Shown: piece by piece, positions 848 to 45,192 of the stretch | Layout of the letters: each line of letters starts with the position of its first letter | Numbering within the stretch: position 1 is the first letter of the stretch | Assembly (NCBI GenBank): GCA_944392595.1 | Contig: CALXXD010000002.1 | Coordinates: 65,027-129,026 of the forward strand | Source of the DNA: an uncultured Alphaproteobacteria bacterium | GTDB taxonomy: Bacteria > Pseudomonadota > Alphaproteobacteria > Rs-D84 | Direction of reading: 5' to 3' | Length of the DNA stretch: 64,000 nt | Position numbers and translations under genes: made by a program | The notes under the pieces: generated by a model | Database searches by the model: none | Seen by the model: the letters and a program-made list of their open reading frames with translations, nothing else | Told to the model about the DNA's origin: nothing

Positions 848-1741
848 ATGAAAATATTTTTCAAAAAACGGCATCCATCTGGATTGCGTGAAATTTACCT
901 GTGCGGTATCAAAATATTCAGTTATCGAAAACGTATTCCAGGTTGGTTTCAAATGGTCTCGTACGAAGATTTACTTGCAGACTTTTTATATTATGTTCCA
1001 AATTCTGATGTTTTTCGGCCGAAAATTTTGAATGTCCCCCAGACTCTGGACAAGTTATTGCACAGTCGTGACAGTATCGCACGATATGGCGATGGCGAAA
1101 TGGAAATAATGAATGGTGGCAAGATACCGTTTCAAGATTATGATGCGGAATTAGCAAATCGCTTAAAATCTATTATAAAAACATCTTATTCAAACGTTAT
1201 GTTGGGTATTCCATATACGTATTTCTTTCCAAAATTTTTACCAGAACGCTCGGAAGAAATAAAACAGTGGAATTACACACGAATTCCAAAGTACAGACGT
1301 GATTTTTTACAATGTATAGATAAGGGATTGGAATATTGTGCCGCGGAAATATCCACCCTTGATGGCGCGTCTTCTGAAACCTATGAAATGTTCAGGAAAT
1401 TATGGAACGGTAAAAATATCGCCATAATCACATGCAAAAGTTTATGGGATAAAGTTGAATATAATATTTTTGATAATGCCCGTAAAATTCACAATATCTG
1501 GGTGCCGAACAAGAATGCGTGGTCTGATACTGAACGCGTATTATCTGAAATCTGCAAATTGCCAAAAAGTGTGATGATAATATTGATGTGTGGGCCTGCG
1601 GCCACCGTTTGGGCGGTTGATTTGGCGAAACGTGGATACCGCGCGCTGGACATCGGTCATGTCTTAAAGGGATATTATTTCTTTATGCACAACATTGATA
1701 AAAATTCAAGTGCCGAGGCCGAGTTTTATCAACCAGATTAA
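848..1741 (+). CDS. GT-D fold glycosyltransferase (DUF1792-like)
   Basis: The 297-aa ORF has an N-terminal SIARYGDGEMEIM that matches the (R/K)FGDGE signature of DUF1792/GT-D enzymes. It follows the methyltransferase on the same strand. Confidence 0.5.
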   Translation: MKIFFKKRHPSGLREIYLCGIKIFSYRKRIPGWFQMVSYEDLLADFLYYVPNSDVFRPKILNVPQTLDKLLHSRDSIARYGDGEMEIMNGGKIPFQDYDAELANRLKSIIKTSYSNVMLGIPYTYFFPKFLPERSEEIKQWNYTRIPKYRRDFLQCIDKGLEYCAAEISTLDGASSETYEMFRKLWNGKNIAIITCKSLWDKVEYNIFDNARKIHNIWVPNKNAWSDTERVLSEICKLPKSVMIILMCGPAATVWAVDLAKRGYRALDIGHVLKGYYFFMHNIDKNSSAEAEFYQPD

Positions 1742-3208: not shown

Positions 3209-3247
3209 CAAAACAAACCCCGCGATATTCGCGGGGTATTTTGTTTT
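3209..3247. terminator. Bidirectional rho-independent terminator after the giant gene
   Basis: Stem CCCCGCG (3218-3224), loop ATATT, stem CGCGGGG (3230-3236). T/A runs flank it on both strands. Confidence 0.7.
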
Positions 3248-3259
3248 GCGATTGCCAAA

Positions 3260-6200
3260 TTACCACATTGTGAAACCTTCGTTACAGGTTCGGACACACT
3301 TCTTTCTGGATTCGTTCCAAACCATAGTACCCGTTTCGTCACTGTATTCTTCGAATGGGCAAATCTGAACGCATTCGCCATATTCCAAATTATACAGTTC
3401 GCCTTGGTCCATACACGATGCGATTTCGCATTCTTGGACATAACTGCTGACCGCCACAGTACCATTTGCGCCGTACTTGTTTTTGCATTCGCCGCATTGT
3501 TTTGTATGGTCATTGGTCAAAGACGGGTCGCTGGTATATCCTGGGTCGCATTGCGTTGCGACACATTCGCCCCAACCATTGATATCATGATTCCATTCTT
3601 TGAATCCGACACCATTTTCAACATTGCATGGTTGGACATCAGATACACATGCGTTCGACGAAACATGGTAACCATATTCGCATTCTTTTATCATACAAGA
3701 ACCGAAACTCTTTTTGTTAAAGTCCCATGTTACTTCGGCATAGACCGCGTTTGGCGCGCTGCATTCTTGGATATTATATTCGCAACGATCGCCATTCGGA
3801 TGATATCCAGACGCACACACAGCAATCTGACATACGCCGCCATCCTTGTATGATAACGCATGTTCGCGGTTACACGGTTCGCAAACGCCGTCAATCATTT
3901 CGTACCCAGCGTTGCACGATTTTTCGATACATACGCCATCCACAATTTCGCACGGGTTACCACTTTCAGACTGACCCTGGTATTCGCATTCGTTTGGATA
4001 GAACGCTTTATCACTGACCGGTACAGCCGTACCATTGATAACATCATACGCTTCACAGGTGTGATAACACTGACTTGCATCGGTTGCGCCCGGCAATGAC
4101 AACGGCCATTCGCCATTACCCAAATCGGCACACGATTTAACATCTTGGCCCGGCACATCTGGGTCTGGATCGATTGTTCCGTCACAGAAACTGCCTTCGG
4201 GACATTCTGTGCATGCGCCATTTTCCAGTGTATATCCAACCTGGCACCGTGTAACTTGACACGTATCTGGCGCGCCATAGTAATCACGACCTGACATTTC
4301 AAGCGCATTTGCAACCTTCGCGCATTCACGCCAGCACATCGCAACGTCTTCCGTGCCTGCATCCGAATTCGGATACAATCCACCGGTCAGCGATGCGCAT
4401 GTTTTTTCAGTACCTTCGTCGCATACGCTGCCTTCTGGGCAATCGATACAAGTATTGCCCACTTGCGAAAATCCTTCGTCGCACGCGATTACGGTACAAG
4501 TTTGACAATTCAACGTATAATCGGCGTCGGATTCGTCATAGTTACAGGTCTGTTGCCCTGAACCGTTGGTGATGTCGCACGCCATATCGGTACGATAGCA
4601 ATCCGATGATGCGCCACTGGTTGTGCCGTTGGTAACGCCGCCCAGCGGACATTCGTGACGTGCCATATCCACGGCGGGACTGTAATAATTCCGACCCACC
4701 GGCACACAGTCAGTTTCCGTCAGATTGCGGTCGAAATAATAACCAGCATCACAACTTGTCATGGTTACATCTTGGCAACTGGATTCATAAATTGCACTGT
4801 CGCCTTCGCCACTGGTATAGAAGCACTTGTTTTCACCAGCACCGTGTTCAGCCTGATACGGCAAGCCATCTTGGTTACACAGTTTTATGTCTTCTGCGGT
4901 TTCGGTATCAGTCTTTCCGCCCGCAGGGCACAGATGACGTTCAGTGTCATTTTGGTTACTGTAATAATTGTTGCCAACCACACTGCAATCTTTATCGGTG
5001 CTGTTTGCCAACCAGTACCCGCCACGACACGTTTCGATTTTCCACGTATCGCAGTCGCGCTGATACACCGCATCAATGCCATCGCCACTGGTATAGAAGC
5101 ACCGTTGTGTTCCTGCACCATTCATTGCCGTATATGGAATTTCGGTCTTAAAGCAATCCTGGATTTTGGTTGCAGTTTCCGACTCGGTATTGCCGCCGTT
5201 TGGACATTGATTACGTGTGGTGATATCGTCGCCGCTGTAATATCCGCGCCCAACCGCAACGCAGTCCGTGTCGTCATTGGATTCCAGCCAATAACCTGCG
5301 ACACAACTGTCGATTGCAATATCGCGACAACTTGCACTGTACGACTTTGCAGCATCGTCCCAATTGCACGTCTGGGTCCCAGAACCGTTTGTCGCACTGT
5401 ATGCCAACTTTGTCTTATAGCACGCAGTTACAGATTCAGAATTGCTGACCGACAACCCATTTTCAGGGCAACTGTAATGACCTTCGGCCGTGCCAGTGTC
5501 GGTTGCAAAATCACCACCCGGACAGTAATGATTTGCTTCGCACGGTGCGCATTCTGAACCATTGCCGGTATAATATGTGCCGGGTGCGCAATTCATTGTG
5601 CCCTTGGACCACCTTGCAAATATGGTCGCATCGTCCGTTGTAAAGGTCAGGGCGTTTTCATTCGTCTGGAACGCGCCGGCCGCATTGACCAGTTGCACCC
5701 CGCCAGATGTTGCGCTGTAATACCCCGCAAATTCATATCCGGTCTTGGACGGCACAGTTGTCAAAGTCGTGATGTCTGATGTTGCAGCACTGTTGCTGAA
5801 CCAACCAGTCGCATATTTCAGATACACGTCACTTGGCGCGCCATTTGTGTCTGCATCTTGGTGATCCAGTGTCACCGCATAAACATTCGGCATCCACACA
5901 GCATATAACGTAACATTTGTACCATTTTCGGATATATTCAGATTGGTGGATTGCCCGGCGTAATAACATGTGCCCGTGCCATCTTTGTTTTTGCACCACT
6001 TGTTCTGACCAGAATATCCCGGACGCGTCAGCACATCGTTGGCGGGCAATTCGCATGCGCCACTGTCGAACACGCATTCGATGCTGGCGGGTGTTGAACC
6101 CGTACCGCCGTTTTTATCCAACGTCACAGTATATCTGTTGGCAACACAAGTCGGACTGTCAGAATTGTTATCCTGGACGGTATATCCTGTATCGCACGTT

Positions 6201-9200
6201 ACCGCATAAGAGCACGCCGCATATTCGGTTTTGCTTATACCAAACACAGTGTTATCTTTGGCCGCAACAGACGATGCGTGTTCCACATCCAAATCGCACG
6301 CCATATAGCAATCTGTGTAACTGTCGGCATTTTCAGACGATTCCACAATACCACCGGTTGGATTTACTGGGCATTTTGTCTGTTCTGTATCTGGATACGG
6401 GCTGTAAAATCCTGTTTCAGTGGATTCGCACAAGAACGCATTTTGTGTCTTGTAATAATAACCCGCATCGCAACTTTTTACCTTTTGTATCGAGCAAGAT
6501 ATATAGTCCGTAGCGGTCACGTGCCAGTTGCACTTTGCAGACGCCACACCATTATCAAACCCGTCATAGTCTTCAAATATCTTGTAACATTGGGTCGGTG
6601 ATACAGCGCCCGTGCCGTCTGTCATACCGCCGTCGGGACATTCATACACTGTACCGTCACCTGGGCAATAGTGGTCTTCTGGGCATTGTGTCGGGTCGCC
6701 AAATTCACAAACTGGATTTGCTGTACCGTTGCCACTGGCCACGTAATTTTCATTACATTGCACGGTGTAAGTACATTGATTATAATCGCTGCCGTTGTAA
6801 TAAGCGGGACCATCGCTGTTTGCAACGCCACCAACCGCATTTGCAACCGGTTTGGTCGCAGGGCAGGTAACAAAGCACTCGGTTACAGATTCCGCACCGG
6901 CCACAGACGACCCGTCGCCAGGACAAGTCTGGGGTCCTTTGCCTTCTTCACAGTACGATCCCTCGGGGCAATCTTCGGGTTCGCCGCTGTCCGTACCACC
7001 GGGACAATTGACGCCCGCTTCGCACATTTCGCACGTGGCGTTGATTGTGTTTTGATTCACCGCCACATAACCGGCCTCACATGTTGCGGTATATGTACAT
7101 GTTGGATACTTCGCGCCGTCCCAATATTGCCGGTCATCGGTATCACTTGCATTCGATGTCAGTGTCCCACCGGTGATATACCCAACGCGGTCGCATTCAA
7201 CATAGCAGCCATTTTGTGATGTTGCTGTTCCATCGGATGTACCGGGGGCGATACATTGTTGCGGTTCGCTGCCATCAGGCGGGCAATATTGACCCGGTTG
7301 GCATTCGCCGACAAACTTACACCATGGTACTGCGGTGTGGTTTTCTTGCACTTCGTAATCTTCATTGCAGACCACGTTATACGTACAGGTCGGATAACCG
7401 CCGGTATCAACGTCGTAATATTTTCTGCCATCGGATGTTACAGAATATGCATTATCAACATGTAATTCAATTATACATGCGTCATAGCATTCTTCGATAC
7501 TGCCTGCACCCGCATCGGACCAACCCACGCCTGTGCCAACGGGCGGACAAGTTTTCGCAATACCGCCCTCGCAGTAATCACCGGCCGTGCATTCTTCTGT
7601 TGTTGTGCCTGTGCCACCCGGGCATATAACGCCATCTTCGCACGGCGTGCATGACGCGCTTGCGCTGCTTTGATTTATTGCAACATAACCAGCATCGCAA
7701 TCTGCCGTATATGTACAGGACGGATATTCACTGCCGTTCCAATTCATTTGTGCATTTATTGGTGATAATTCGCCACCTGTAATATCACTGCTTTGGCATG
7801 TGATATAGCATTGCGTTTTATCAGACGCACTTGCCGGACTGGTTGCACCATTGCCGCACGGTACGTTACATCCAGATTGGCCAACCTGGACATTGCCTGT
7901 GCCGGGGCAATAATCGCCCGGTTTGCAATTTTGCAACACGCCACTTTCATCATAGTATTTACCAGCCTGACATTCATAAAACGTCTGTGTCCAGCACGCA
8001 TACCGTGTCGCAGAACCCATAAACACTTCTTGGAACACGCCGCTTTCACAACTTGGATCGGCGCCCCATCCGGTAAATGCGTATCCTGTGCGTTCAACGC
8101 CTTCGCGTGGTAATTCACATGGCACGCCGTGCAAACAAGTCTTGCTGGCTGGGGCGGTGCCCGTTCCTTGATTCTTGTTCAGCGTGATTGTGTATTCGTC
8201 TGGTTCGCACGTCAAACCGTTGTCGGACAAATGATAACCATCGTCACATGTGAATGTATCTTCACTGCCTTCGGTTCCACAGTTGTTCGAATTTTCAGGG
8301 CACGCCTGGCACGCGGATTCCAATACATAAAATCCAGACTTACACTGGGTCGGTACGCATGTATCGCCTTTGCCCTGGGTCATATAACCGGACACAGTAA
8401 CCGCATTCGGTACATCGGCCGCAACGCACGCACGTTGGCAATCAGCGGTTGTTTCATTGCTGCACACATCGTAATTGTCACCCGAAAATTCACCACTGCA
8501 CTGCACAAAGCAACTTGTGCATCCATTGCCATTCGGATATTGTGTGGCCGAACAATCGCATGTTCCCGATGCGCCCGTATTTTTGTCGCACGGTTCCCAC
8601 ACAGCGGTAAAGTTAATATCTGTGGTGTATTCCCAATTGAACGTGGTGCTGGGTTGGAAAGTTTCGCCCAGTCCATCAGACCATCCACCAAACGTAAATC
8701 CAGGCCGTTTGCAGGTATTTTGTCCTTTGACCTCGTAATTTTCGGCATACAACTGTGACGAGCCCCCCGGCGCATTACCAGTCGCGCCCGTGCCACACGA
8801 ATAAGATACCTTATACGCATGCGCGGTACAACTTAATCCATCCAAAGATACATCATACCCGGCATCGCACACAACGCCCGCCAAAGAACACTGCTTTGCG
8901 GATACGCTGCATTCTTTATCAACTTGGTTTTGAATACCCGTTTCAAATTCTTCGGTATTCCAAGTACATGATGCGGCATGTTCAGGACACGCGCCTTGAC
9001 CCGGGTCGGTACATGGCACATTGCATGCCATGGTACATTGATTCGGGTTTGTCGAACCCTGGGGCGCAGTATATCCACCTTCGCACGCCGGGCATGTTAT
9101 ACCACTTGCATACCGATTCGCTTCGCATACAACGCTTGCCACGGGCTTGGTGCAACTTAATTCATCCACAGTCTTGCATTCGCCAACATAATCACCATCA

Positions 9201-10651
9201 CCGGCCGCGCCGTATTTTTGTGTGCATTGCCAATTATCAGGTTCGCATGCACTGGTTTCTTGGCTGACCGCGCCGGTAACCAATTCAGGCTCTTTTTGTT
9301 CGCCGGTTACGGTAAATACTTTCTGGCATTCAGATTCCGCGGTCGTCCCCGGTCCATCGCGCCAATCGTCGGGGCATTGCAACGGCGTACTGACGTTGCC
9401 TTGGGATACTGTGTGATTGCCGATATAATATCCGCCTTTGTCCGCCAAAGACACACATTGTTCGCCGGCGGTTGCAACGTATGTTCCGGCATCGCACGTT
9501 ATCTTGCACGATTCGACGCCAGCGTGTCCGTCGGGCGTGGTATATCCAGTGTTACATGTCGTACATTGTGTCGCACCTTCGTCAGAATATTCGCCCGAAT
9601 CGCACATGTTACATGTTGAAGTATTGCCGTATGTCACCGTATGCGTGGTTTTATACGTACCGGCCGCACATTGTGTCGGGCTTTCGTCATATTCGTTGGC
9701 CAAATAATATCCGTCTTCTATGTTCTTGGCACACCCAGACAAGGACGTCGCAGGATTCCCATCGGTATATCCAGTCGGACAATCACCATAATCTGTATCC
9801 AGCACAGATGTTTCACCCTGGGACACGACGCCACCCGTCGCCCAATCGCCTGCATCAACCACGGCACAGGCGGCGTTGGCTTCTTTTACCGCCTCGGTTG
9901 GGTCACATGTTGTCTTGCACGATGCCACGCCCGCATGATCGCCCTGCGTATCGCCGCTGTTACCATATCCTGCATCCGTTAAACACGCAATACACGAAGC
10001 CGCACCAGCATCCGAGTAACTATTATCATCACACACTTCGCACGCTGGGGATGTGTCGCCATAGAAAACCTGGTGTGCCGCTTTAAAAGTCCCCGCCTGG
10101 CAACTTTCAAAACTTGTCGAACCCGCTGTCGTTAAAATCGAACCAGCCGGAACATCGATATAGCATGATTTTTGCTGATATGCACCCGCTGGTGATGTAT
10201 ATCCAGTCGGACAAGTGTTTATTCCTTGGTCTTTTGATGCATTATAGTAATATTTGCTCCCCGGGCAATAAGACCCCTCCGGACACTCGGAGCACCTCAA
10301 ACCATCTGCTGGTAAATATGTACCTGTTTCGCACAGTATGGCTGATAATTTACAATCCTGACCGGAGGTAGAGCGTTTGTTCAGCATCGCGCTATTTGAT
10401 AAATCTCCGTCAATTGTGTATCCTCTGTCGCACAGACAATAAGACTGCGTTCCGCCCGGCGATGTGGAATTTTCACCGCATGGATCGCAAGTGTTACCTA
10501 CGTTGGTTCCGCCACTCATATAATAATTCTCGTTACACGAAGTGTATTTCCGATTTTCGGGACAATCATATCCCGCGGCAAGCGCATTGCCGGCAAAAAT
10601 CAAAACGAACAACGATGCTAAAACACCCAGAAATCTGCGAATTTTCTCCAT
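3260..10651 (-). CDS. Giant secreted cysteine-rich repeat protein (VSP/furin-like GCC2_GCC3-type modules plus 4 Flg_new / InlB-B-type repeats)
   Basis: One uninterrupted ORF. The start is MEKIRRFLGVLASLFVLIFAGNALA (signal peptide) at 10651, preceded by GAGAGGAAAG. C..C..G.YC modules recur (CPEGSYCPG, CKPGDYCPG, CTAGDYCEGG, CQPGQYCPP, CPEDHYCPG, CEANHYCPGG and others). Flg_new-like units (YTVTLDKNGGTG..., YTITLNKNQGTG..., YKVSYSCGTGATG..., VYAVTLDHQD...) lie at about 8590-8820, 7990-8200, 5900-6140 and 5610-5890. Four tandem ~88-aa units lie at about 4500-5430. Confidence 0.85.
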   Translation of the reverse strand: MEKIRRFLGVLASLFVLIFAGNALAAGYDCPENRKYTSCNENYYMSGGTNVGNTCDPCGENSTSPGGTQSYCLCDRGYTIDGDLSNSAMLNKRSTSGQDCKLSAILCETGTYLPADGLRCSECPEGSYCPGSKYYYNASKDQGINTCPTGYTSPAGAYQQKSCYIDVPAGSILTTAGSTSFESCQAGTFKAAHQVFYGDTSPACEVCDDNSYSDAGAASCIACLTDAGYGNSGDTQGDHAGVASCKTTCDPTEAVKEANAACAVVDAGDWATGGVVSQGETSVLDTDYGDCPTGYTDGNPATSLSGCAKNIEDGYYLANEYDESPTQCAAGTYKTTHTVTYGNTSTCNMCDSGEYSDEGATQCTTCNTGYTTPDGHAGVESCKITCDAGTYVATAGEQCVSLADKGGYYIGNHTVSQGNVSTPLQCPDDWRDGPGTTAESECQKVFTVTGEQKEPELVTGAVSQETSACEPDNWQCTQKYGAAGDGDYVGECKTVDELSCTKPVASVVCEANRYASGITCPACEGGYTAPQGSTNPNQCTMACNVPCTDPGQGACPEHAASCTWNTEEFETGIQNQVDKECSVSAKQCSLAGVVCDAGYDVSLDGLSCTAHAYKVSYSCGTGATGNAPGGSSQLYAENYEVKGQNTCKRPGFTFGGWSDGLGETFQPSTTFNWEYTTDINFTAVWEPCDKNTGASGTCDCSATQYPNGNGCTSCFVQCSGEFSGDNYDVCSNETTADCQRACVAADVPNAVTVSGYMTQGKGDTCVPTQCKSGFYVLESACQACPENSNNCGTEGSEDTFTCDDGYHLSDNGLTCEPDEYTITLNKNQGTGTAPASKTCLHGVPCELPREGVERTGYAFTGWGADPSCESGVFQEVFMGSATRYACWTQTFYECQAGKYYDESGVLQNCKPGDYCPGTGNVQVGQSGCNVPCGNGATSPASASDKTQCYITCQSSDITGGELSPINAQMNWNGSEYPSCTYTADCDAGYVAINQSSASASCTPCEDGVICPGGTGTTTEECTAGDYCEGGIAKTCPPVGTGVGWSDAGAGSIEECYDACIIELHVDNAYSVTSDGRKYYDVDTGGYPTCTYNVVCNEDYEVQENHTAVPWCKFVGECQPGQYCPPDGSEPQQCIAPGTSDGTATSQNGCYVECDRVGYITGGTLTSNASDTDDRQYWDGAKYPTCTYTATCEAGYVAVNQNTINATCEMCEAGVNCPGGTDSGEPEDCPEGSYCEEGKGPQTCPGDGSSVAGAESVTECFVTCPATKPVANAVGGVANSDGPAYYNGSDYNQCTYTVQCNENYVASGNGTANPVCEFGDPTQCPEDHYCPGDGTVYECPDGGMTDGTGAVSPTQCYKIFEDYDGFDNGVASAKCNWHVTATDYISCSIQKVKSCDAGYYYKTQNAFLCESTETGFYSPYPDTEQTKCPVNPTGGIVESSENADSYTDCYMACDLDVEHASSVAAKDNTVFGISKTEYAACSYAVTCDTGYTVQDNNSDSPTCVANRYTVTLDKNGGTGSTPASIECVFDSGACELPANDVLTRPGYSGQNKWCKNKDGTGTCYYAGQSTNLNISENGTNVTLYAVWMPNVYAVTLDHQDADTNGAPSDVYLKYATGWFSNSAATSDITTLTTVPSKTGYEFAGYYSATSGGVQLVNAAGAFQTNENALTFTTDDATIFARWSKGTMNCAPGTYYTGNGSECAPCEANHYCPGGDFATDTGTAEGHYSCPENGLSVSNSESVTACYKTKLAYSATNGSGTQTCNWDDAAKSYSASCRDIAIDSCVAGYWLESNDDTDCVAVGRGYYSGDDITTRNQCPNGGNTESETATKIQDCFKTEIPYTAMNGAGTQRCFYTSGDGIDAVYQRDCDTWKIETCRGGYWLANSTDKDCSVVGNNYYSNQNDTERHLCPAGGKTDTETAEDIKLCNQDGLPYQAEHGAGENKCFYTSGEGDSAIYESSCQDVTMTSCDAGYYFDRNLTETDCVPVGRNYYSPAVDMARHECPLGGVTNGTTSGASSDCYRTDMACDITNGSGQQTCNYDESDADYTLNCQTCTVIACDEGFSQVGNTCIDCPEGSVCDEGTEKTCASLTGGLYPNSDAGTEDVAMCWRECAKVANALEMSGRDYYGAPDTCQVTRCQVGYTLENGACTECPEGSFCDGTIDPDPDVPGQDVKSCADLGNGEWPLSLPGATDASQCYHTCEAYDVINGTAVPVSDKAFYPNECEYQGQSESGNPCEIVDGVCIEKSCNAGYEMIDGVCEPCNREHALSYKDGGVCQIAVCASGYHPNGDRCEYNIQECSAPNAVYAEVTWDFNKKSFGSCMIKECEYGYHVSSNACVSDVQPCNVENGVGFKEWNHDINGWGECVATQCDPGYTSDPSLTNDHTKQCGECKNKYGANGTVAVSSYVQECEIASCMDQGELYNLEYGECVQICPFEEYSDETGTMVWNESRKKCVRTCNEGFTMW

Positions 10652-10788
10652 GCTTTCCTCTCTTTTATACTTAATCATAGAAAAAAATCGCCATATCACG
10701 CAAGGGAAAAAGTAAAATATTTCCAGCCACAAATAAAAATCCCCACGGGATATGCCACAGGGCGACAAGTCAAGGGATTAATTACCCA

Positions 10789-11035
10789 ACCCCGTTCTCT
10801 CTTACCACCCCGTCACGCTGACGCGTTCCATCCCTCCAACGGAGGGGAACTTAGCCCGCGACGGGAACACACTAATGCCCACCGCCCCAGAATCCACCCA
10901 CGCAAACTTTGTTTGCGCGGGGCCCGGTGTGGGGGCGGGGGGGGTGCCGTGCTTTGCACGACGGGGGGTGGGGTTTATCACCCGAAGCCACGGCGAAGGG
11001 TGACACGAGTAACGAGTTACGAGTAACCAGTAACT
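10789..11035. repeat. GC-rich multi-hairpin intergenic element, copy A (inverted relative to copy B at 30316-30598)
   Basis: Shares collinear blocks with the reverse complement of copy B: TCTCT(T/A)ACCACCCCG, CC(C)CTCCAACGGAGGGG, the hairpin CCCACG.AAA...TTT.CG.GGG, GGGGT(AG)TTTATCAC and GAGTTACGAGTAAC. It ends in four tandem heptamers, GAGTAAC GAGTTAC GAGTAAC CAGTAAC (11007-11034). Confidence 0.7.
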
Positions 11036-11059: not shown

Positions 11060-12964
11060 TTATTTCTTTTCAGAAAAATCTGCGTCACGCGTACCGTCGT
11101 CATTCGGTTTATCATTTGACTCGCCGGATTCAGACGATTGCTGCGCCGCTTCCTGGGACGCTTTATATACCGCTTCGCCCAGTTTCATAGACTTTTCAGT
11201 CAGCGCATCGGTCTTTGCTTTCAGACTTTCCGCCGTGGCATCGGATTTTGCCAATTCGTCGGACAGTTCTTTTTTCGCATCTTCGATGGCTTTCTTTTCG
11301 TCCGCGCTGATTTTGTCGCCGTGTTCTTTCAAAGCCTTTTCAACTGTGAATACAGCGGTCTCGGCATTATTTTTCGCCTCGGCCAATTCACGTTTCTTTT
11401 TATCAGCGTCGGCATTGGCGGCGGCTTCATCAACCATACGTTTGATTTCTTCTTCGCTTAAACCACCGTCGGATTTAATAGAAATCGCCTGTTCTTTACC
11501 GGTGCCTTTATCCTTGGCGGATACATGCACGATGCCATTCGCGTCGATGTCGAACGAGACCTCGATCTGGGGCATTCCGCGCGGTGCGGGGGCGATGCCT
11601 TCCAGATTAAATTGCCCCAGCAATTTATTATCGGCGGCCATATCGCGTTCGCCCTGGAATACGCGAATTGTAACGGCGGATTGATTATCTTCGGCCGTGC
11701 TGAATATCTGGGATTTTTTGGTTGGGATGGTTGTGTTACGATCAATCAAGCGCGTAAATACGCCACCCAAAGTTTCAATACCCAAAGACAACGGTGTCAC
11801 ATCCAGCAACAGAACGTCTTTTACATCGCCTTTTAACACGCCGCCTTGAATCGCGGCACCCAACGCAACGACCTCGTCGGGATTCACGCCTTTGTGCGGG
11901 TCGCGACCAAAGAATTCTTTGACGGTTTCTTGAACCTTTGGCATACGTGTTTGCCCACCGACCAAGATAACTTCGTTAATCTGGGATTTATCCAACCCGG
12001 CGTCTTTTAACGCTTTGCGGCATGGTTCAATTGTTTTTTGAATCAAATCATCAACCAAAGATTCCAACTTTGCACGTGTCAGCGTTGTATTGAAATGTTT
12101 CGGACCCGTCGCATCTGCAGTCAAGAACGGCAGATTAATATCCGTCGATGTTTTCGACGACAATTCGATTTTGGCTTTTTCGGCGGCTTCTTTTAACCGT
12201 TGCAGTGCCAATTTGTCGTTCGACAGGTCAATTCCAGTCTGGGATTTGAATTCGTCGATTAAATATTTCAATACGCGTGCGTCAAAATCAGAACCGCCCA
12301 ATGCTGTATCGCCGTTTGTGGATTTTACTTCGAACACGCCATCAACGATTTCCAAAATAGAAATATCAAACGTACCGCCACCCAAGTCATATACTGCAAT
12401 AGTACCGTTTTTGTTTTTATCCAAACCATACGCCAACGCGGCCGCAGTCGGTTCATTAACAATACGCAGAACATTCAACCCTGCTATACGCCCCGCGTCT
12501 TTTGTTGCCTGGCGTTGGGAATCATTAAAGTACGCCGGTACAGTAATAACCGCATCTGTTACCGTTTCGCCCAGGTATGCTTCGGCATCTTTTTTCAATT
12601 TTGCCAAAATCATAGCAGAAATCTGGGACGGTGCATATTTTTTACCATCGATTTCCACCCAAGCATCGCCATTATCGCCCGCCACAATTTTATATGGCAC
12701 GCGCGCGGCAATTTCTTTAACCGCGGGGCTGTCAAAGCGCAAGCCCATTAAACGTTTGATTTCATATACTGTGTTTTCAGGATTTGTCACAGCCTGATTC
12801 TTGGCGGTAATGCCCACCAATTGTTCGCCACCCGACGTCATCGCAACAACAGACGGTGTTGTGCGTTGTCCTTCGGAATTTTCGATAATTTTGGGATCAG
12901 ATCCATCCATGAACGCCATGGCGGAATTTGTTGTACCCAAATCGATACCCAATACTTTTGCCAT
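11060..12964 (-). CDS. dnaK: Molecular chaperone DnaK (Hsp70)
   Basis: [14 protein letters not shown]..., [20 protein letters not shown] and DLGGGTFD. Full length at 634 aa. Confidence 0.98.
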
Positions 12965-27721: not shown

Positions 27722-28050
27722 ATCAATCCAGTTGCTGGGTTTCTGTTGCCGGGCACCCAGCAGCCCCGCAATAGGCTTAAACGGATATAACTAACAATTG
27801 CCAATTATACCCAAACGCCAATTAGGCAGCCATTGCAAGGCGAACGTTGTCGTTCGCAGCGATTCTATCGCCATTCAGTTTTTATTCGGCTTTTAACGAC
27901 GCCACGTCGGATTCAACCGATTTGCCTTTACTTCGCCTGTCGAAACTATGTCAGCCCCCATATTTTTATTGGTGGAGCTGTGGGGTACCGCCCCCCAGTC
28001 CAAAACGACTATTCCGCAACGGATTCAGAATCATCATCGCTTTCGCGACA
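27722..28050 (-). ncRNA. ssrA: tmRNA (ssrA), circularly permuted two-piece alphaproteobacterial type
   Basis: Read on the minus strand. The acceptor piece ends ...GGGGGGCGGTACCCCACAGCTCCACCA, with the 3' A at 27970. After a 10-nt spacer the coding piece starts GGGGCTGACATAGTTTCGACAGG at 27959. The tag ORF is GCG AAC GAC AAC GTT CGC CTT GCA ATG GCT GCC TAA (27857 to 27822), which translates to ANDNVRLAMAA*. The outer boundaries are approximate. Confidence 0.85.
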
Positions 28051-28093
28051 GCGTAAATTATAATATTTAATGGTGGCAATTGCAAGTTTTTAA

Positions 28094-30315: not shown

Positions 30316-30598
30316 AGTTACTCGTAACTCGTGATAAACTACCCCGGCCCAACCACCCACGAAAATCGCATTTTCGTGGGCCCCGGTATCGTGCCACCCC
30401 TCCGTTGGAGGGGTGGCGGCTTGCCGCCGGGGTGGTTAGAGACTGCGGGCTTGGGCACTTAGTCCCCTTTGTCATCGCGAGGAAGTGAAACGACCGTGGC
30501 GATCCAGTGAATAAAAAAGCACTGCGGGCGAATGCCCGCAGACATATTGCACTGGATTGCCGCAGTCGTACGCCAACGTGTTAATTACAAGTAACTAA
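30316..30598. repeat. GC-rich multi-hairpin intergenic element, copy B (MITE-like, imperfect terminal inverted repeats)
   Basis: The ends are AGTTACTCGTAA (30316-30327) and TTACAAGTAACT (30586-30597), matching 11/12 as inverted repeats. Internal hairpins are CCCACGAAAAT/ATTTTCGTGGG, CCCCTCC/GGAGGGG, GGCGGC/GCCGCC, CTGCGGGC/GCCCGCAG and CCAGTG...CACTGG. The left 130 bp is collinear with copy A in reverse orientation. Confidence 0.7.
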
Positions 30599-33081: not shown

Positions 33082-34332
33082 ATGAAACATTCTTTGTTCG
33101 TATTCGGATTAATGGCGATATTCTGTGCCACGCCGGCTTTGGCGGTCAATGCGGGAACGGTTGCATCAAATGGTATGGCGCGCGGAACGGCGGCGTACAA
33201 CACAACAACCGGCACAACAAACACGGTCAATCGTGGATATGCAGGATTGGCAAACGCATACGTCACGAACCAGCGTAACACGTATTATATGGTAACCCAG
33301 CCTGATGTTGATACCGCGTGCCGTAACAAGATTTTTGAATGTTTGTCTGAATATTGCGGCGATGTAACGGTCGTACCGGGTCAGCGTTCCGGCCGTTGTC
33401 AATATGCCACCGAAAGCGAACTGTATAATTACGCGTTGCTGTGCTTGCAGCGTGACACATCCCCGTTGTTACCGCAATATACATCCGGATTGATCGCCAG
33501 TGCAGGGGGAATGAATACCGCGGCGCGTCTGTGTCCATCGTATGTCCAGCAAGAAGTTATGTCGTACCTGTCTATGTCGAATATGGCGGACGAATTGTCA
33601 AAATCCCACAGTGATTTATGTCTGCAACGCCGGCAAGAGTTAGAGGCTGCAATGGCATGCCATTCTGTCGCGTTGGCATACGGCAACGAAACAACCAGTA
33701 TGCTGACCACACAATTAACCGACGCATGTGGCGCGGGCGTTCCCGGCGGGTCGGCAGAAATGGTGACTCGTTTCGCAAATGCGGGTAATGTTGGTGCGAA
33801 CGTTTGGGGATGGGCAGAAAAGATTTTGAATCTGGATATGAATAACAAGGGCGAAGATTGGCAAATGGCGGTCGATTCCGTTTTGGCCAGTTACGCCAAT
33901 CGTATGAATTTGGCGTGTGGCGACGATTTGCAAATAAATACTGCATCTTATTCTACATCGGATTCGTCCCAGCCAACAACACTGCAAACTGTTGCGGCAT
34001 TGGCGACGGGTGTTGCGTTCCCATCGACTGCGCCGAATGTTGAAAATCCATATCAAAATCAAAGTTTGTATATGGAACAAACAACAATGTCCGAAATGTA
34101 CGATTACAACACCGCTTACCAGGTTGTCCAGGCCGCAATGAGTAATCCTGTCACGACCCAGAACGCATTTTTATCAACTGCGCAATTAAGTGATATGCAA
34201 ACTGCATACACCCGCGGAACCAAGGTGTTCATTATGCGCGACAGTGCGCGTTGCTATATAATTCCGGTTGCAACATTAACAACCCAGGAATCAAACTTGA
34301 TTGCGCAAATGTTTGCATCGTGTGTGAATTAA
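33082..34332 (+). CDS. Secreted hypothetical protein (416 aa)
   Basis: Signal peptide MKHSLFVFGLMAIFCATPALA. Paired cysteines, T/N/Q-rich. I recognise no family. Confidence 0.6.
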   Translation: MKHSLFVFGLMAIFCATPALAVNAGTVASNGMARGTAAYNTTTGTTNTVNRGYAGLANAYVTNQRNTYYMVTQPDVDTACRNKIFECLSEYCGDVTVVPGQRSGRCQYATESELYNYALLCLQRDTSPLLPQYTSGLIASAGGMNTAARLCPSYVQQEVMSYLSMSNMADELSKSHSDLCLQRRQELEAAMACHSVALAYGNETTSMLTTQLTDACGAGVPGGSAEMVTRFANAGNVGANVWGWAEKILNLDMNNKGEDWQMAVDSVLASYANRMNLACGDDLQINTASYSTSDSSQPTTLQTVAALATGVAFPSTAPNVENPYQNQSLYMEQTTMSEMYDYNTAYQVVQAAMSNPVTTQNAFLSTAQLSDMQTAYTRGTKVFIMRDSARCYIIPVATLTTQESNLIAQMFASCVN

Positions 34333-40837: not shown

Positions 40838-41770
40838 ATGATGTGGCGGGGATTTATTGCTTTTTCAACATTGTTGTTATGTGGCACCGCAAATGCGGAT
40901 GTACTGCCGTTATATGACGCACTGCGTGCAACATATACCGCATGCGTCGGTATCGATGATGAATTGGCGGATCTTAAAACAATGGCGGGGATAAACACCG
41001 CGGTCACGGGCGTCGGCACGGCCGCAGGCGTTGGTGCAACCGTCACTGGATTTGTAAAGGCCGAAAAAGATAAACAAATCGAAGTCACTTTATCCAAATT
41101 ACGCGAATTGGAACAACAAAATAATCTTTCCATATCAACCGCATCAGAATATGAAACATGGGTGGTCGATTTTGAAACATTAAGCACAGATAACGCCATT
41201 TTAACCCAGATTCAAAATGCGGTTAATGAACGAAATAAATTATTAACCCAATCTATTAAATTGGGAAATTGGCGCACGGGGTTATTGGCTGCGAACACGG
41301 CGACCAATGTCGCGGGTGCTGCGATTGCGGGCACAAACCGCGTTGATGCCGATTTACAAACACAAATTGACAATTGCATAACCGCCGTCACGAATTTACA
41401 AAATTCTATTGCCCAGGCGCGCATTGACGGCCAAGACGTGACCGAGGCTGAACAAATCGCAACCACATGCAACGAATACAAATACGTCGATATAACGCCG
41501 ATAAATAACCGCGGTCGTAATTCTATGATTTCATCGATTGTTGGTGCTGCGACTGGATTGGCGGGTACAGTTACCAGTGCGGTTGCAAACACCGAAAAAA
41601 CGCGCAGTGGTGACGAACAACGTGAAAAGAATCTGAACACGGCATCAAATGTTTTGTCAATTGGTGCAACAACATCATCGGCCGTGGCGACTGTATTTAA
41701 CGCCACTCAAATTGCGGCAATTAAAAAAGTTGCCGACGTTGCGTCCGCCTGCACAGGGGTATTGCGTTGA
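40838..41770 (+). CDS. Secreted hypothetical protein with four Gly/Ala/Thr-rich glycine-zipper-like hydrophobic segments
   Basis: Signal peptide MMWRGFIAFSTLLLCGTANA. Segments GINTAVTGVGTAAGVGATVTGFV, LLAANTATNVAGAAIAGT, ISSIVGAATGLAGTVTSAVA and VLSIGATTSSAVATVF. The stop codon overlaps the start of the next ORF (TTGA). Confidence 0.6.
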   Translation: MMWRGFIAFSTLLLCGTANADVLPLYDALRATYTACVGIDDELADLKTMAGINTAVTGVGTAAGVGATVTGFVKAEKDKQIEVTLSKLRELEQQNNLSISTASEYETWVVDFETLSTDNAILTQIQNAVNERNKLLTQSIKLGNWRTGLLAANTATNVAGAAIAGTNRVDADLQTQIDNCITAVTNLQNSIAQARIDGQDVTEAEQIATTCNEYKYVDITPINNRGRNSMISSIVGAATGLAGTVTSAVANTEKTRSGDEQREKNLNTASNVLSIGATTSSAVATVFNATQIAAIKKVADVASACTGVLR

Positions 41771-44700
41771 AACGTATATTGTTTTGTGTTTTATTATCAT
41801 TTGTGACATATTCTGCACGTGCGGAAAGTTGGATGTTGTTTTCCGCGGCCGCGGTTGAAGATTCCATTAACACCATGGTTGAACCAGAATATCGCGCGGC
41901 CACTGCGGACGAATATGAAAAACAAATGGATTCAACAAACGGCAAAATAACCGCAAGTGGCATTTTAAGTGTCTGCGCAACTGCTGGTTGGGCAATCAAC
42001 ACGGACGAAGGCTTTTATTTCTGTCGCGGTTTTGTCGACAACATTGCGGAATTATCGGGTGTGTCATCAAACGCCGCAAAACAATGCAAGCAAATGAACG
42101 GTATCCGTACTGTATTGGACGATGGTTCAAATCAATGTATTGGTCGCGATGGGACTGTGTTGGTGTATTCAAACGCGTGCCGTGGCGGCGATGGTGAATG
42201 TGTGGAATTTTTCGCAGACCTGCGAACCCAAGTTCCCAACGCTTTGGAATTTATATACGAATACGGTAAATCGAATAATTTGAAATTCACATGCTCGAAC
42301 GAGATTGTCGATATCCACAAAATCGGCAGTGATTATATAAAATGCAGCGCTAATAAAACCGCATACGAATTCAAATTTGATACATTGAATCAGTCATATA
42401 ACCGGCGTATGGTTGATTCTGAAAACGCGGCATTGTGCAAAATGTTTGGCGGCACGGTTGCGGGCACTGATGATTATTGGACAATGTGTGATATGGAACG
42501 CGCCAAGTGCGACAAATTGGCGACATTTGCCCCAACAATTGGTCACAGTGCAATGTACCAGGGTTCATGCCGCATATCGCGCACTGTAAATACGCGTGAT
42601 AATATATTTTTGAATCACATTGACGGCGTGGATAGTTATGTATTTTATGATGTAAAAATACGTTCTGGGGTCGCGAAACCGATGCTGGAACAGTATTTAA
42701 CATCCATATTCCCAGATGAAGAATACATAACATGTGATTCTGATATAGTTGAATTAAACGATCCAACATCATTGGGCACGAATTGGATAATGCAATGCAC
42801 CGTCGGCACCCAACAGGTTGATTTTATATTCGATGAATTGGCAACCCAATCCGACGCACAAACTATGACGGGCATGGACATAATGCAGTGTATTATAAAC
42901 GGCGGCACATTTAACGGCGAAACTTGTCGTGGATTAACGGCAACAGAATGTGATGCATTGGATGCGAAATTGCGTGCGTCTGGTTCGGAAAATGGCGCAT
43001 ATTATGACGACGACATGCGTGCATGTGTATTGGGTAACGCAATGGCGACGTATCAGCGCAATGTTGTCGCGGGCTACGTGATTGGCGCGGTGGTTATTGT
43101 TGGTGGCACGGTATTAACAATTGCCAGTGGCGGCGCTGCTGCACCAGTTGTAATAAACGGGGTTGCTATGTTGGCCGGGGATTTGGCAATAAATTATACC
43201 ATTGACGCCAATCACCGCAGATTAAGCGAAAAAGCCGCTAAGAAGTTTGTAGATTTTGTGACGGACGCGAACGCATGTACAACGGAACAGTGCGCACTGG
43301 ATGTATTGGAAAAACACTATGCGACACTGTCGGGCGTTATGAGTGACTTGAACACAGACGACCGTGCAGTTGTTGATGAAACAATGGACAGGTTAATAGG
43401 CTTAATTCAAACAGAGTTTGTGGCATGTGGAAAAAATGACGCTGGACAAACGGTATATGCCAGCCCGGCCGATTGCGCAATGCAGCAATCAAAATTAACA
43501 TTGCTGGATCACATTGATCCGATTTCAGAAGTCGCCCTGATAATCGGCAGTGTTATATATGACCCCGGTTACGTAGTCGCACGATTTACACGATTGAAAA
43601 ATGTTACAAAAACCATAACTCAAACTGTAAATACACTGGATGCATTGACATCGCAAATGACCCGCGGCATAGATAACGCATTGCAAACGTTGGATGATAT
43701 AAATGATGCCAGAATAGCACTGCAAAACCAAGCCGAAACGGTTAAGCAATTATTGGTTAATAATGTTGATTTAATCAAAAACGCATCGACAATAGAAGAA
43801 GCACAAAGATATGCCGATAATGCGACCCAATTGGCATTTGCACTGCAAAATCGTGCTGACGATGCGACATCAGCGGTATCTGCGTTGTTGCGCGAAAATC
43901 CCGCCAATGAATTAACGGCGGAATCATTGCGTTCTGCACAACAATACGCAGATGAAATCTCGGCCATCGCACGACAGTCCCAAGAAATCGCTGACGAATC
44001 AACGCGCGCGCTGGATGCGAAACGCCTGCAACTGAATGCGTCCAAAAGAAGCGATATGGATGCGGCTTTGGCCCATGCGGATGCGCGCCGTACTAATACA
44101 AGCGAATATATCACGGAACCTGTTATGTATTTCAGGGCCATACAGCAGACAGATAAAAGCCCCGAAGAAATCGTACAAATATTAAACAATGCCGGTATTC
44201 GTGCATCAACAGATGTTTCTGACCAATCTGCATGGGTTATTAACAGGTCGTCCGTATCTGGCTCTTACGAATTGGTGTCGCCGTTTATGGCACCAGAAAC
44301 CGCAACGCAACAATTTGATATTGTAAATGATATATTGCGTCAAAACAGTATCCGAACAAGCGGTGCGGTTACGCCAACAACCATATCGCAAATTGATCCA
44401 ACGGTTGTAACTGGCACATCCCGGGACCAGGCTATGATAAATATCAGAAATTATTTTGATAATAATCCAACTTTATACGAGCAAACAGGATTAACACCCA
44501 AATCAACCAATGATGAATTGCTGGGCGCGTTAATAGAAAACATCCGACATAATAACCAATTTACTGCCGCAGAATATATAAGATCCGATTATGCGGGACA
44601 AGATGTTTTATATCGCGGACAAAAATTTTCAACGTCTGATCCGGGTTCTGCGTATGCAAATATGTCGCCAAAGGCTGGCACCACGGGCAACGCATTGGGA

Positions 44701-45192
44701 ACTACTGATCATGTCTATGCTGTATCTTATGCTGGCACTGGTGCAATCAGCAATGGCGGCGCTGGACTGTCCGCCGAGCATATTGGCGTACAAGAAGTCG
44801 GTAATCGTCGTGTGGGATTTCTTAATGTATATAAAAACAGTGACAAAAATGTTTTTTATAATAACGCAATAATAGAAGATTTAAGTGACGATATTTTGAA
44901 AAATCCTTTGTCTTCATCTGGTGCTTCAAATATCCCTGAAACGCTTATAACACCACAGGATAATCCAGTAATAGACAGATATATTGTGGTAAATGATGGG
45001 TATTTTAAATTGGAAAACGACAATGAAATTGATAGATTGGTTATGGATGCATTTGCGCCGGATTTAAGCAAAACATATAATGCCGATATGATACGAAGAA
45101 TCGAAAATGTTGAAAGCGGTATGACGAACGGCGTGCCTCAAACATATAATTTGCCAGAAAATGTAATAAACAGTGTATCCCCGGGGAATTAA
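41767..45192 (+). CDS. Large (1,141 aa) secreted/membrane hypothetical protein
   Basis: TTG start with signal peptide MKRILFCVLLSFVTYSARA. It has a Cys-rich N-terminal ~400 aa, a Gly-zipper TM region (VVAGYVIGAVVIVGGTVLTIASGGAAAPVVINGVAMLAGDLAI), a coiled-coil middle and a C-terminal domain I do not recognise. Confidence 0.65.
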   Translation: MKRILFCVLLSFVTYSARAESWMLFSAAAVEDSINTMVEPEYRAATADEYEKQMDSTNGKITASGILSVCATAGWAINTDEGFYFCRGFVDNIAELSGVSSNAAKQCKQMNGIRTVLDDGSNQCIGRDGTVLVYSNACRGGDGECVEFFADLRTQVPNALEFIYEYGKSNNLKFTCSNEIVDIHKIGSDYIKCSANKTAYEFKFDTLNQSYNRRMVDSENAALCKMFGGTVAGTDDYWTMCDMERAKCDKLATFAPTIGHSAMYQGSCRISRTVNTRDNIFLNHIDGVDSYVFYDVKIRSGVAKPMLEQYLTSIFPDEEYITCDSDIVELNDPTSLGTNWIMQCTVGTQQVDFIFDELATQSDAQTMTGMDIMQCIINGGTFNGETCRGLTATECDALDAKLRASGSENGAYYDDDMRACVLGNAMATYQRNVVAGYVIGAVVIVGGTVLTIASGGAAAPVVINGVAMLAGDLAINYTIDANHRRLSEKAAKKFVDFVTDANACTTEQCALDVLEKHYATLSGVMSDLNTDDRAVVDETMDRLIGLIQTEFVACGKNDAGQTVYASPADCAMQQSKLTLLDHIDPISEVALIIGSVIYDPGYVVARFTRLKNVTKTITQTVNTLDALTSQMTRGIDNALQTLDDINDARIALQNQAETVKQLLVNNVDLIKNASTIEEAQRYADNATQLAFALQNRADDATSAVSALLRENPANELTAESLRSAQQYADEISAIARQSQEIADESTRALDAKRLQLNASKRSDMDAALAHADARRTNTSEYITEPVMYFRAIQQTDKSPEEIVQILNNAGIRASTDVSDQSAWVINRSSVSGSYELVSPFMAPETATQQFDIVNDILRQNSIRTSGAVTPTTISQIDPTVVTGTSRDQAMINIRNYFDNNPTLYEQTGLTPKSTNDELLGALIENIRHNNQFTAAEYIRSDYAGQDVLYRGQKFSTSDPGSAYANMSPKAGTTGNALGTTDHVYAVSYAGTGAISNGGAGLSAEHIGVQEVGNRRVGFLNVYKNSDKNVFYNNAIIEDLSDDILKNPLSSSGASNIPETLITPQDNPVIDRYIVVNDGYFKLENDNEIDRLVMDAFAPDLSKTYNADMIRRIENVESGMTNGVPQTYNLPENVINSVSPGN

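Follow-up and report, generated by a model that had tools for sequence, protein, structure and literature searches.

Giant repeat adhesins of Gram-negative bacteria are acidic, modular, rod-like proteins with a presumed role in adhesion, usually without a very high cysteine content: those of type I secretion systems (T1SS; RTX proteins such as LapA and SiiE) carry GGxGxD nonapeptide repeats and a C-terminal secretion signal, lack an N-terminal signal peptide and are encoded beside ABC, MFP and TolC genes, and the type V (T5SS) autotransporters end in a beta-barrel. The variant-specific surface proteins (VSPs) of the anaerobic gut microbe Giardia are Cys-rich, consist of a variable N-terminal and a conserved C-terminal part ending in a transmembrane helix and a CRGKA tail, and number ~200 copies. 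MST1, the subunit of the mastigoneme filament, is an ephrin-receptor-like Cys-rich tandem with a disulfide ladder (~11 Å apart), which is credited with the robustness of this extracellular hair (PMC10602792). We analysed a 64,000-nt stretch of an uncultured alphaproteobacterium (contig CALXXD010000002.1, positions 65,027 to 129,026; the whole stretch is referred to as the window), in which a 7.4-kb gene encodes a Cys-rich protein of 2,463 aa (hereafter the giant protein, encoded by the giant gene).

The giant protein shares size, modular rod build, acidity and presumed adhesion with the Gram-negative adhesins but has a Sec signal peptide, no GGxGxD repeat, a confident C-terminal model without a barrel, and no transporter gene nearby. 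With the Giardia VSPs it has in common the Cys richness, the anaerobic gut setting and the variable N-terminal and conserved C-terminal parts; it is about four times longer, ends in ...CNEGFTMW without helix or CRGKA tail, and its family appears to have few copies per genome, with no switching evidenced. A multigene switching family of the VSP type was rejected: among the 79 loci kept for their C-terminal domain (described below), only four genomes are represented twice. The uncharacterised proteins labelled "InlB B-repeat-containing protein" have the same architecture and promoter, and nothing essential differs. Giant modular surface proteins are already a known kind; new here are a conserved C-terminal domain, a dedicated promoter and an unusual presumed disulfide load.

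We read the giant protein as a disulfide-stapled surface fibre held by its C-terminal domain and carrying a variable distal tip (probability roughly 0.55), for which we infer the surface location, the polarity of attachment and the adhesive role. The host group, Candidatus Enterousia/Rs-D84, is widespread in human and animal guts. The giant gene takes up ~0.8% of such a genome, and many species have retained it intact at the same place in the chromosome. Because of this, and because it has its own conserved promoter and a fast-evolving tip, the giant protein is an obvious candidate for the contact organelle of these bacteria. It raises the questions of how a diderm would display a 2,400-residue protein without a known secretion signature, and by what means ~97 Cys pairs would be oxidised in an anaerobe that has no respiratory chain. 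Its importance would rise if the C-terminal domain were a new surface-display signal, or the fibre the attachment organelle of partner-dependent gut bacteria.

A lineage-specific family with a conserved C-terminal domain

The giant gene is an unbroken reading frame on the minus strand (2,463 codons, 7,392 nt) that opens with the ATG at 10651 and closes with the TAA at 3262-3260. A longer TTG-initiated frame (to 10768) given by the open reading frame (ORF) finder was set aside, as the ribosome-binding site (RBS) AAGAGAGGAA lies 5-14 nt upstream of the ATG and homologues begin at the equivalent Met. An earlier account made from the letters of this DNA (the sequence-only reading) had described an uninterrupted ORF with a Sec signal peptide and its own RBS and terminator, all of which were borne out.

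A long repetitive ORF from a metagenome is suspect a priori, and the sequence-only reading had named an assembly chimera as what could undo it. Positive support for a chimera, or for a pseudogene read through by chance, was not found, and either is barely credible. The identical 2,463-aa protein is present on at least 23 contigs (28 blocks of public assemblies) from independent samples, always with the neighbours L25, dnaK, giant gene, hydrolase, ybaK and GT-D. Its 90%-identity cluster has 167 members, and among the 15 listed, 12 are exactly 2,463 aa and the others 2,258 and 2,490 aa. These contigs and this cluster rule the chimera out. The gene holds no tandem repeats at the DNA level, only short, weak direct repeats, so the protein repeats are old and diverged and pose no assembly hazard; collinear homologues exist as well (39-62% identical; P0001, 99%).

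As judged from its sequence, the giant protein is a clear member of a lineage-specific Enterousia/Rs-D84 family, the one that databases label "InlB B-repeat-containing protein". The protein has 364 homologues at E<=1e-3, with both ends in common and a middle that is a variable mosaic. The shared N-terminus has the form M(G/E)KxRxFLG...signal...AAGYxCPxxKKYTSC, and the signal peptide M(G/E)KxRxFLGxxxSLF... is found in most relatives. All three marks of the family (C-terminal domain, signal peptide with cap, and promoter/leader) are present in the giant protein and its gene. A scan of one genome per GTDB species found 174 coding stretches with the C-terminal domain; among the records listed, almost all are metagenome-assembled genomes (MAGs) filed as Candidatus Enterousia, uncultured Alphaproteobacteria or "Rickettsiales", and the sources are chicken, human, mouse, ruminant and horse gut. 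The phyletic distribution, for which the sequence-only reading had proposed a check, is narrow: the family occurs almost only in Enterousia/Rs-D84 gut MAGs. Literature searches returned no description of these giant proteins.

The C-terminal domain (~330 aa) is 44-79% identical across 41 non-redundant relatives, with all 31 Cys conserved. It stands at the extreme C-terminus in 103 of 120 homologues and nearly always ends in ...GYTxW, and the giant protein conforms to the family ending C-x-R-T-C-x-x-G-[YF]-x-x-W. A profile search of 1.84 billion representatives found the domain in 293 proteins at E<=1e-30 and in 840 at E<=1e-3; in nearly all representatives listed it was terminal. It follows varied passengers: of 13 proteins sampled, 11 have Flg_new and 4 have Ephrin_rec_like, and PKD and CHB_HEX_C also occur. 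The Cys content of the proteins that carry it is 3.7-8.8%. Its first ~90 residues match the preceding unit (hhalign), the ~45-aa four-Cys modules start at aa 2246, 2279, 2324, 2368 and 2413, and the CNEGFTMW ending is the truncated start of one further module. The AlphaFold2 (AF2) model of aa 2133-2463 consists entirely of short beta-hairpins (predicted local distance difference test, pLDDT, 91.8). The domain has no PDB sequence match and no Pfam or NCBIfam model, and in Foldseek searches of PDB and BFVD no structure came below E 1e-3, the best-placed ones (TcsL, ADAM22, adenovirus fibres) being noise. Shared by different passengers at a strict terminus, it looks like a docking/sorting module, and with no counterpart in Pfam, NCBIfam or PDB it deserves a family model. 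The terminal Trp was considered as the beta-signal of an outer-membrane protein; this was weakened by the truncated-module origin of CNEGFTMW and by the absence of a barrel in the model.

The 75 nt upstream of the gene are strikingly conserved even where the encoded proteins share only ~40% identity. Across 49 aligned upstream regions a T-rich stretch and a near-invariant CTTGC(A/G) are followed by an 18-nt spacer ending in a T-run, TA(G/T)(A/G)AT, and then AAATAYAAAAGAGAGGAAR..ATG, which we read as a -35/-10 promoter, a ~20-nt leader and a strong Shine-Dalgarno sequence. A 31-nt promoter/leader pattern occurs a single time in the window (10655-10685; 0 expected by chance). Each of 32 loci likewise has one copy of it, which in 31 cases immediately precedes the giant gene. 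In the remaining locus (L079) it lies at 11268-11298 (+), just past the stop codon of the giant gene, which suggests two family genes in tandem in that genome. A generic promoter scan missed the promoter because the -35 matches only 3/6, and an Rfam search of the upstream region gave sub-threshold noise only. Phase variation through the spacer T-run was rejected: the spacer was 18 nt in the three promoters counted by eye, and the run is only 4-8 T.

Conservation rises from the N- to the C-terminus. Against 13 collinear homologues, identity is ~50% at aa 1-100, 21-39% at aa 100-700, 41-55% at aa 800-1400, 58-67% at aa 1400-2100 and 68-76% at aa 2200-2463; Cys are 98-99% conserved versus ~50% for other residues. 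Thirteen strain variants (96.5-99.3% identical) differ at 155 positions, 47 of them within aa 1-250 (chi-square p = 9e-13), with the signal peptide and all Cys invariant. A conserved, shared C-terminus and a diversifying N-terminus fit a fibre whose C-terminus would be fixed and whose N-terminus would be the tip, facing ligands or the defences of the host. The C-terminal domain, the family-specific promoter and this gradient had all been overlooked in the sequence-only reading.

Two further groups of records were seen beside the family. Family-gene contigs filed under "Clostridia bacterium", "Bacteroides fragilis" and "Muribaculaceae bacterium" MAGs (L011, L033, L045, L058) are probably mis-binned, because gene and promoter are of the Enterousia type. 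A second set of large Cys-rich proteins (P0104, P0107, P0108, P0111, P0112, P0115, P0118-P0120) has the same signal peptide and N-terminal cap, and Ephrin_rec_like-type repeats 33-45% identical to aa 100-450 of the giant protein. In place of the GYTxW domain they carry another conserved C-terminus, ...SLNVKIGDTTYYGNM...YSVHDDSM, and some lie on ~0.9-1.0 Mb contigs.

Module composition and fold

The N-terminus, MEKIRRFLGVLASLFVLIFAGNALA followed by AGY, has the tripartite build of a Sec signal peptide (judged by rule), with three basic residues, a hydrophobic core of 15 residues and A-L-A ahead of the predicted cut, and it is the sole hydrophobic segment of the protein (next-best Kyte-Doolittle window, 1.0). 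Cleavage would leave a mature protein of ~2,438 aa, and not the ~2,460 aa given before. G, T, A, S and D are abundant in the protein, which is strongly acidic (D+E 332 versus K+R 115). Its 194 Cys (7.9%, versus 0-3.6% in the other credible genes of the window) amount to nearly two hundred and fall short of the "hundreds" that had been claimed. There are 17 CxxC motifs and eight strict CxxGxYC motifs plus two variants, and the five Cys motifs quoted in the sequence-only reading were all found (aa 123, 909, 1117, 1323 and 1704).

Pfam and NCBIfam were run on the whole protein, and Pfam also on ten overlapping 303-aa fragments. Flg_new (PF09479) was the only Pfam family above threshold (whole protein: 55.6 bits versus a cut-off of 27, E 5.7e-15, 4 stretches), at the four places where such repeats had been reported; the position of the fourth in Table 1 is taken from that report. 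NCBIfam TIGR02543 stayed below its cut-off (14.6 versus 20.95). Self-comparison showed degenerate repeats throughout the protein (25-55% identity). The four tandem Cys-rich units (aa ~1708-2060) lie where they had been placed, with a period of ~92 aa, and not ~88 aa, by self-BLAST and the AF2 model, in which each is a three-stranded sheet with Cys-rich connectors.

Sub-threshold matches of the fragments (E 0.01-0.1) were to Cys-rich repeat families: TNFR_ELAPOR1_6th (PF23091), NCD3G (PF07562), Ephrin_rec_like (PF07699), DUF7631 (PF24634) and EGF-like. The giant protein has the C-x-x-G-x-Y/F..., C-x2-C pattern of Ephrin_rec_like, TNFR_ELAPOR1_6th and NCD3G, with matches at aa ~100-450 and 1688-1833, but differs in that all these matches are below the curated cut-off; PF07699 (formerly GCC2_GCC3) reached 13.2-13.5 bits against a gathering threshold of 23.1 (E 0.06-0.08). 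BLAST aligned stretches of two relatives to aa 27-470: P0065 (down to E 1e-40) and, more weakly, P0117 (128 bits). Against PF07699 these stretches reach 63.7 and 96.4 bits, respectively, and they clear NCD3G and TNFR_ELAPOR1 as well. Because these aligned stretches pass, the N-terminal third appears to be a divergent ephrin-receptor/TNFR-type Cys-rich repeat array, a relationship that is probable but indirect, PF07699 being reached only via intermediates. The proposed GCC2_GCC3 resemblance is therefore likely through the relatives and is sub-threshold in the giant protein itself. The CPxGxYCPGG motif of relative P0114 matches DUF7631 (PF24634, E 2e-8), so the quoted CxxGxYC motif corresponds to a Pfam DUF. 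The resemblance to Giardia VSPs (PF03302) and furin-like repeats (PF00757) was not upheld: neither matched at E<=10, in the whole protein or in the ten fragments. Pfam offers no model for the ~100-aa units, the ~92-aa units or the C-terminal stack, and no PDB sequence was matched by the whole protein, by the profile of the C-terminal domain or by that of aa 1686-2140.

The relatives P0065, P0086 and P0117, which are distant and from other organisms, have long Ephrin_rec_like/NCD3G/TNFR_ELAPOR1 arrays. In P0065 and P0086 the arrays follow a type IV pilin-like N-terminus (KSGFTLIEIIGVIIIIGIIAI...); further surface appendages of bacteria therefore employ "eukaryote-style" modules as well.

The AF2 model of aa 1686-2140 had a pLDDT of 92.4. 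The predicted template-modelling score (pTM) of both AF2 models (0.58-0.59) fits elongated all-beta rods. Foldseek matched the aa 1686-2140 model to the Chlamydomonas mastigoneme (PDB 8wa2; E 5e-5 / 4e-4, prob 1.0 / 0.99) and to ELAPOR1 (9vqm, E 5e-4), and matches to the EphA2 cysteine-rich domain (CRD; E 0.17) and OX40 were non-significant (E 0.17-0.8 for the two); the structure prediction proposed in the sequence-only reading thus gave a fold match to the first two and not to the last two. Like MST1, the giant protein is an extended tandem of extracellular-type Cys-rich modules of the ephrin-receptor CRD type. Sequence identity to 8wa2 is 14-15% and the template-modelling scores (TM-scores) are 0.19-0.23, low because both are rods. 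MST1 differs in its nine Ig-like domains, glycosylated polyproline helix and PKD2 anchor, and the giant protein shows no sign of polymerisation. By this analogy, the likeness is one of working mode and module type, not of family membership.

Table 1. Positions of the giant gene, its signals and the parts of its product in the window
Feature	Residues (aa)	Window position	Strand	Basis or description
Coding sequence of the giant protein (2,463 aa + TAA stop)	1-2463	3260..10651	minus	ORF reading
Putative promoter and short leader		10652..10710	minus	T-rich stretch, -35 TTGCGT (10703-10698), 18-nt spacer ending in T-run, -10 TATGAT (10679-10674), 22-nt leader with AAGAGAGGAA
Intrinsic terminator of the giant gene		3217..3237	minus	9-bp stem, 7 GC pairs, then TTGTTTT
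Predicted signal peptide	1-25	10577..10651	minus	SPase I cut predicted between ALA and AG; rule-based reading, conserved in relatives
N-terminal cap (AGYxCPxxxKYTSC) and divergent Ephrin_rec_like/TNFR-like Cys-rich repeats	26-612	8816..10576	minus	least conserved part
Strain polymorphism hotspot, two alternative sequence blocks	87-135	10247..10393	minus	block replacement among 13 variants
Flg_new 1	613-683	8603..8815	minus	PF09479, 17.8 bits versus 27 on fragment alone (below cut-off)
Flg_new 2	820-885	7997..8194	minus	PF09479, E 2.5e-6 on fragment; best whole-protein stretch
About six degenerate ~100-aa units, each opening C-x-x-G-x-Y-C, DUF7631-like	894-1500	6152..7972	minus	self-BLAST, 28-55% identity
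Flg_new 3 and 4	1507-1585 and ~1587-1680	5612..6133	minus	PF09479, E 1.2e-7, 2 stretches on fragment aa 1441-1743
CxxGxYC module and four tandem ~92-aa units	1686-2060	4472..5596	minus	self-BLAST, up to 50% identity; AF2 model
Conserved C-terminal domain	2133-2463	3263..4255	minus	one more ~90-aa unit, then ~45-aa four-Cys hairpin modules, ends CNEGFTMW

Export, inferred disulfides and probable location

A sequence scan of the giant protein found no LPx[TSA]G, no GGxGxD and no second hydrophobic segment. Sortase-anchored surface proteins carry LPXTG ahead of a hydrophobic stretch and a basic tail. Pfam recognised no autotransporter beta-barrel, and AF2 models the last 331 aa as stacked short hairpins, not as a barrel. 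Motif scan, hydropathy and AF2 model thus agree with the statement in the sequence-only reading that there is no autotransporter barrel, RTX/T1SS signal, LPXTG or transmembrane anchor, and its overall picture of a giant Sec-exported protein of Cys-rich modules and Flg_new repeats without a recognisable secretion or anchor signature is supported. The envelope of the host likely has two membranes, because MlaD, MlaE, an Mla-type auxiliary lipoprotein and TolR-like proteins are encoded in the flanking DNA of relatives.

The even number of Cys, their 98-99% conservation and the confident beta-hairpin models suggest that ~97 disulfides staple the giant protein. In the working model, the giant gene would be transcribed as a single-gene unit from its family-specific promoter and translated from a strong RBS, and the product would be exported by Sec with cleavage of the signal peptide. 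It would fold into a long acidic rod of ~40 or more small beta-rich modules (Ephrin-receptor/TNFR-like Cys-rich modules, the ~100-aa and ~92-aa Cys-rich units and four Flg_new repeats), stapled by these disulfides. By analogy with the disulfide-laddered MST1 filament, such a fibre could resist gut proteases and shear. The C-terminal domain would be cell-proximal and would hold or target the fibre at the cell envelope; the polymorphic N-terminal part would be the distal tip, contacting a ligand on a partner cell, the host surface or mucus and subject to diversifying pressure.

Several observations weigh against the anchored surface fibre. Neither an outer-membrane translocator, secretin, TpsB or T1SS gene nor an anchor gene adjoins the giant gene in 80 loci, and no ligand-binding, lectin or enzymatic domain was found in the giant protein. 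The C-terminal model is a soluble-looking hairpin stack, neither barrel nor helix, and profile positions ~132-237 of the C-terminal domain recur as an internal repeat in a few relatives; the domain may be a conserved stalk rather than an anchor. The host has no respiratory chain, yet ~97 disulfides would need oxidising power, and some of the Cys may coordinate metal. No Dsb-like CxxC thioredoxin motif turned up in a regular-expression search of the window and of flanking DNA, which is uninformative as these are a small part of any genome.

The same absence of any kind of anchor signature, and the soluble-looking C-terminal model, would suit a released or loosely associated coat or matrix protein, shed or forming a protease-resistant layer or inter-cell matrix, in place of an anchored adhesin. 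The strongly acidic composition, the abundance suggested by a strong conserved promoter and RBS, and a best fold match to a self-assembling filament protein are also in its favour. However, the sharp N-to-C gradient and the N-terminal hotspot fit a polar, tip-exposed molecule better than a uniform coat, and a strictly terminal conserved domain on different passengers looks like a docking/sorting module; we give the coat or matrix a minor though appreciable chance.

Since disulfides form in the periplasm of diderm bacteria, and the protein has a Sec signal peptide only, with no outer-membrane translocation signature or neighbouring secretion genes, it could also be a structural or scaffolding protein of the periplasm or envelope that never crosses the outer membrane. 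This is unlikely: a rod of ~2,440 residues made of extracellular-type modules (Flg_new, Ephrin_rec_like; PKD in relatives) far exceeds the width of the periplasm, and the strain-level diversification of one end points to selection from outside.

A more specific form of the surface-fibre reading, which we put forward tentatively and do not expect to hold in full, is that the giant protein is a bacterial counterpart of the eukaryotic "hair": a disulfide-laddered fibre of ~100 nm (a rough estimate from the module count) that would let a partner-dependent gut bacterium with a ~0.9-Mb genome grip its partner or host, be mounted on the outer membrane via the C-terminal docking/sorting domain, and diversify at its tip by allelic block exchange. 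If true, it would imply that diderm bacteria display proteins at their surface by a route, or through a receptor, not recognised so far.

Host, neighbours and further observations

The host of the giant gene is Candidatus Enterousia, a gut alphaproteobacterium of the order Rs-D84 with a reduced genome. The window holds housekeeping genes throughout (Pfam on the window genes) and a two-piece (permuted) alphaproteobacterial transfer-messenger RNA (tmRNA) at 27730-28089 (minus; RF01849, 160.8 bits), with the tag peptide AANDNVRLAMAA. Enterousia genomes measure 0.75-1.0 Mb; the tricarboxylic acid cycle, respiratory chains and a number of glycolysis genes are missing from them, and these bacteria have been proposed to depend on a partner (PMC12306168).

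The GC content at third codon positions (GC3) of the giant gene is 0.47, equal to that of dnaK, rpoD and obg; its higher overall GC stems from codon position 2, i.e. from amino-acid composition. Neighbours were clustered over 80 loci carrying family genes, and those that recurred were an HI0933-like flavoprotein (44 of 80 loci), a PIF1-like helicase (40), an alpha/beta hydrolase (34), ybaK (27) and dnaK (12); in these loci only housekeeping genes recur, with no secretion or anchoring partner. As GC3 matches the housekeeping genes and the same housekeeping neighbours recur across loci, the giant gene is, on this sequence evidence, a native, syntenic and vertically inherited core gene and not a recent import.

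These data bear on a possible recent acquisition from a eukaryote, in which the protein would mimic Cys-rich host receptors (ephrin receptor, TNFR, ELAPOR-like) and manipulate signalling. What speaks for it is the fold and weak sequence resemblance to ELAPOR1, that to the EphA2 CRD, OX40 and NCD3G being weaker or non-significant. Against this stand the housekeeping-like GC3, the syntenic chromosomal position across many species, the C-terminal domain in at least 293 representative proteins (E<=1e-30, 50% clusters), the lack of a PDB sequence match at E<=0.1, and the same module types in other bacterial giant proteins (P0065, P0086, P0117). The likeness, moreover, is to generic disulfide-rich modules and to no specific receptor, and we consider the acquisition very improbable. 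The remark in the sequence-only reading that the pattern is not typical of proteobacterial adhesins is accordingly half right: the gene is native and sits in a syntenic housekeeping position, and the C-terminal domain is found in at least 293 representatives, almost only from Enterousia/Rs-D84 gut MAGs.

Pfam recognised no secretion system and no Dsb protein among the other genes of the window, and five ORFs had no Pfam match. The second gene downstream of the giant gene, on the other strand, encodes a glycosyltransferase of the GT-D fold (PF08759, E 9e-47; window 848-1741, +). The arrangement is also found in locus L080 and is absent from the listed neighbour clusters; the enzyme could conceivably take part in glycosylating the Thr/Ser-rich giant protein. 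Four predicted exported or membrane proteins of the window had no Pfam match above the curated cut-off: 33082-34332 (+; 416 aa), 40838-41770 (+; 310 aa), 41767-45192 (+; 1,141 aa) and 45362-47296 (-; 644 aa). The genes for the 310-aa and 1,141-aa proteins overlap by 4 nt and are operon-like. Near the giant gene of other loci, two small Cys-containing proteins without a Pfam match were seen: a 143-aa secreted protein with a signal peptide (L026, 9919-10350, and four other loci) and a 111-aa lipoprotein (L044, 12627-12962, and nine other loci).

A 306-nt element of 59% GC (window 10730-11035, minus; genome 44% GC) sits in the gap from the dnaK terminator to the giant-gene promoter; it holds C8 and C5 runs, ends in a terminator-like hairpin (10762-10741) and has no Rfam match. 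The element may encode a small structured RNA or belong to a family of dispersed repeats. A stretch of ~74 nt is 76% identical to a partial copy at window 30397-30466, and short pieces recur in L013, L036, L002 and L014.

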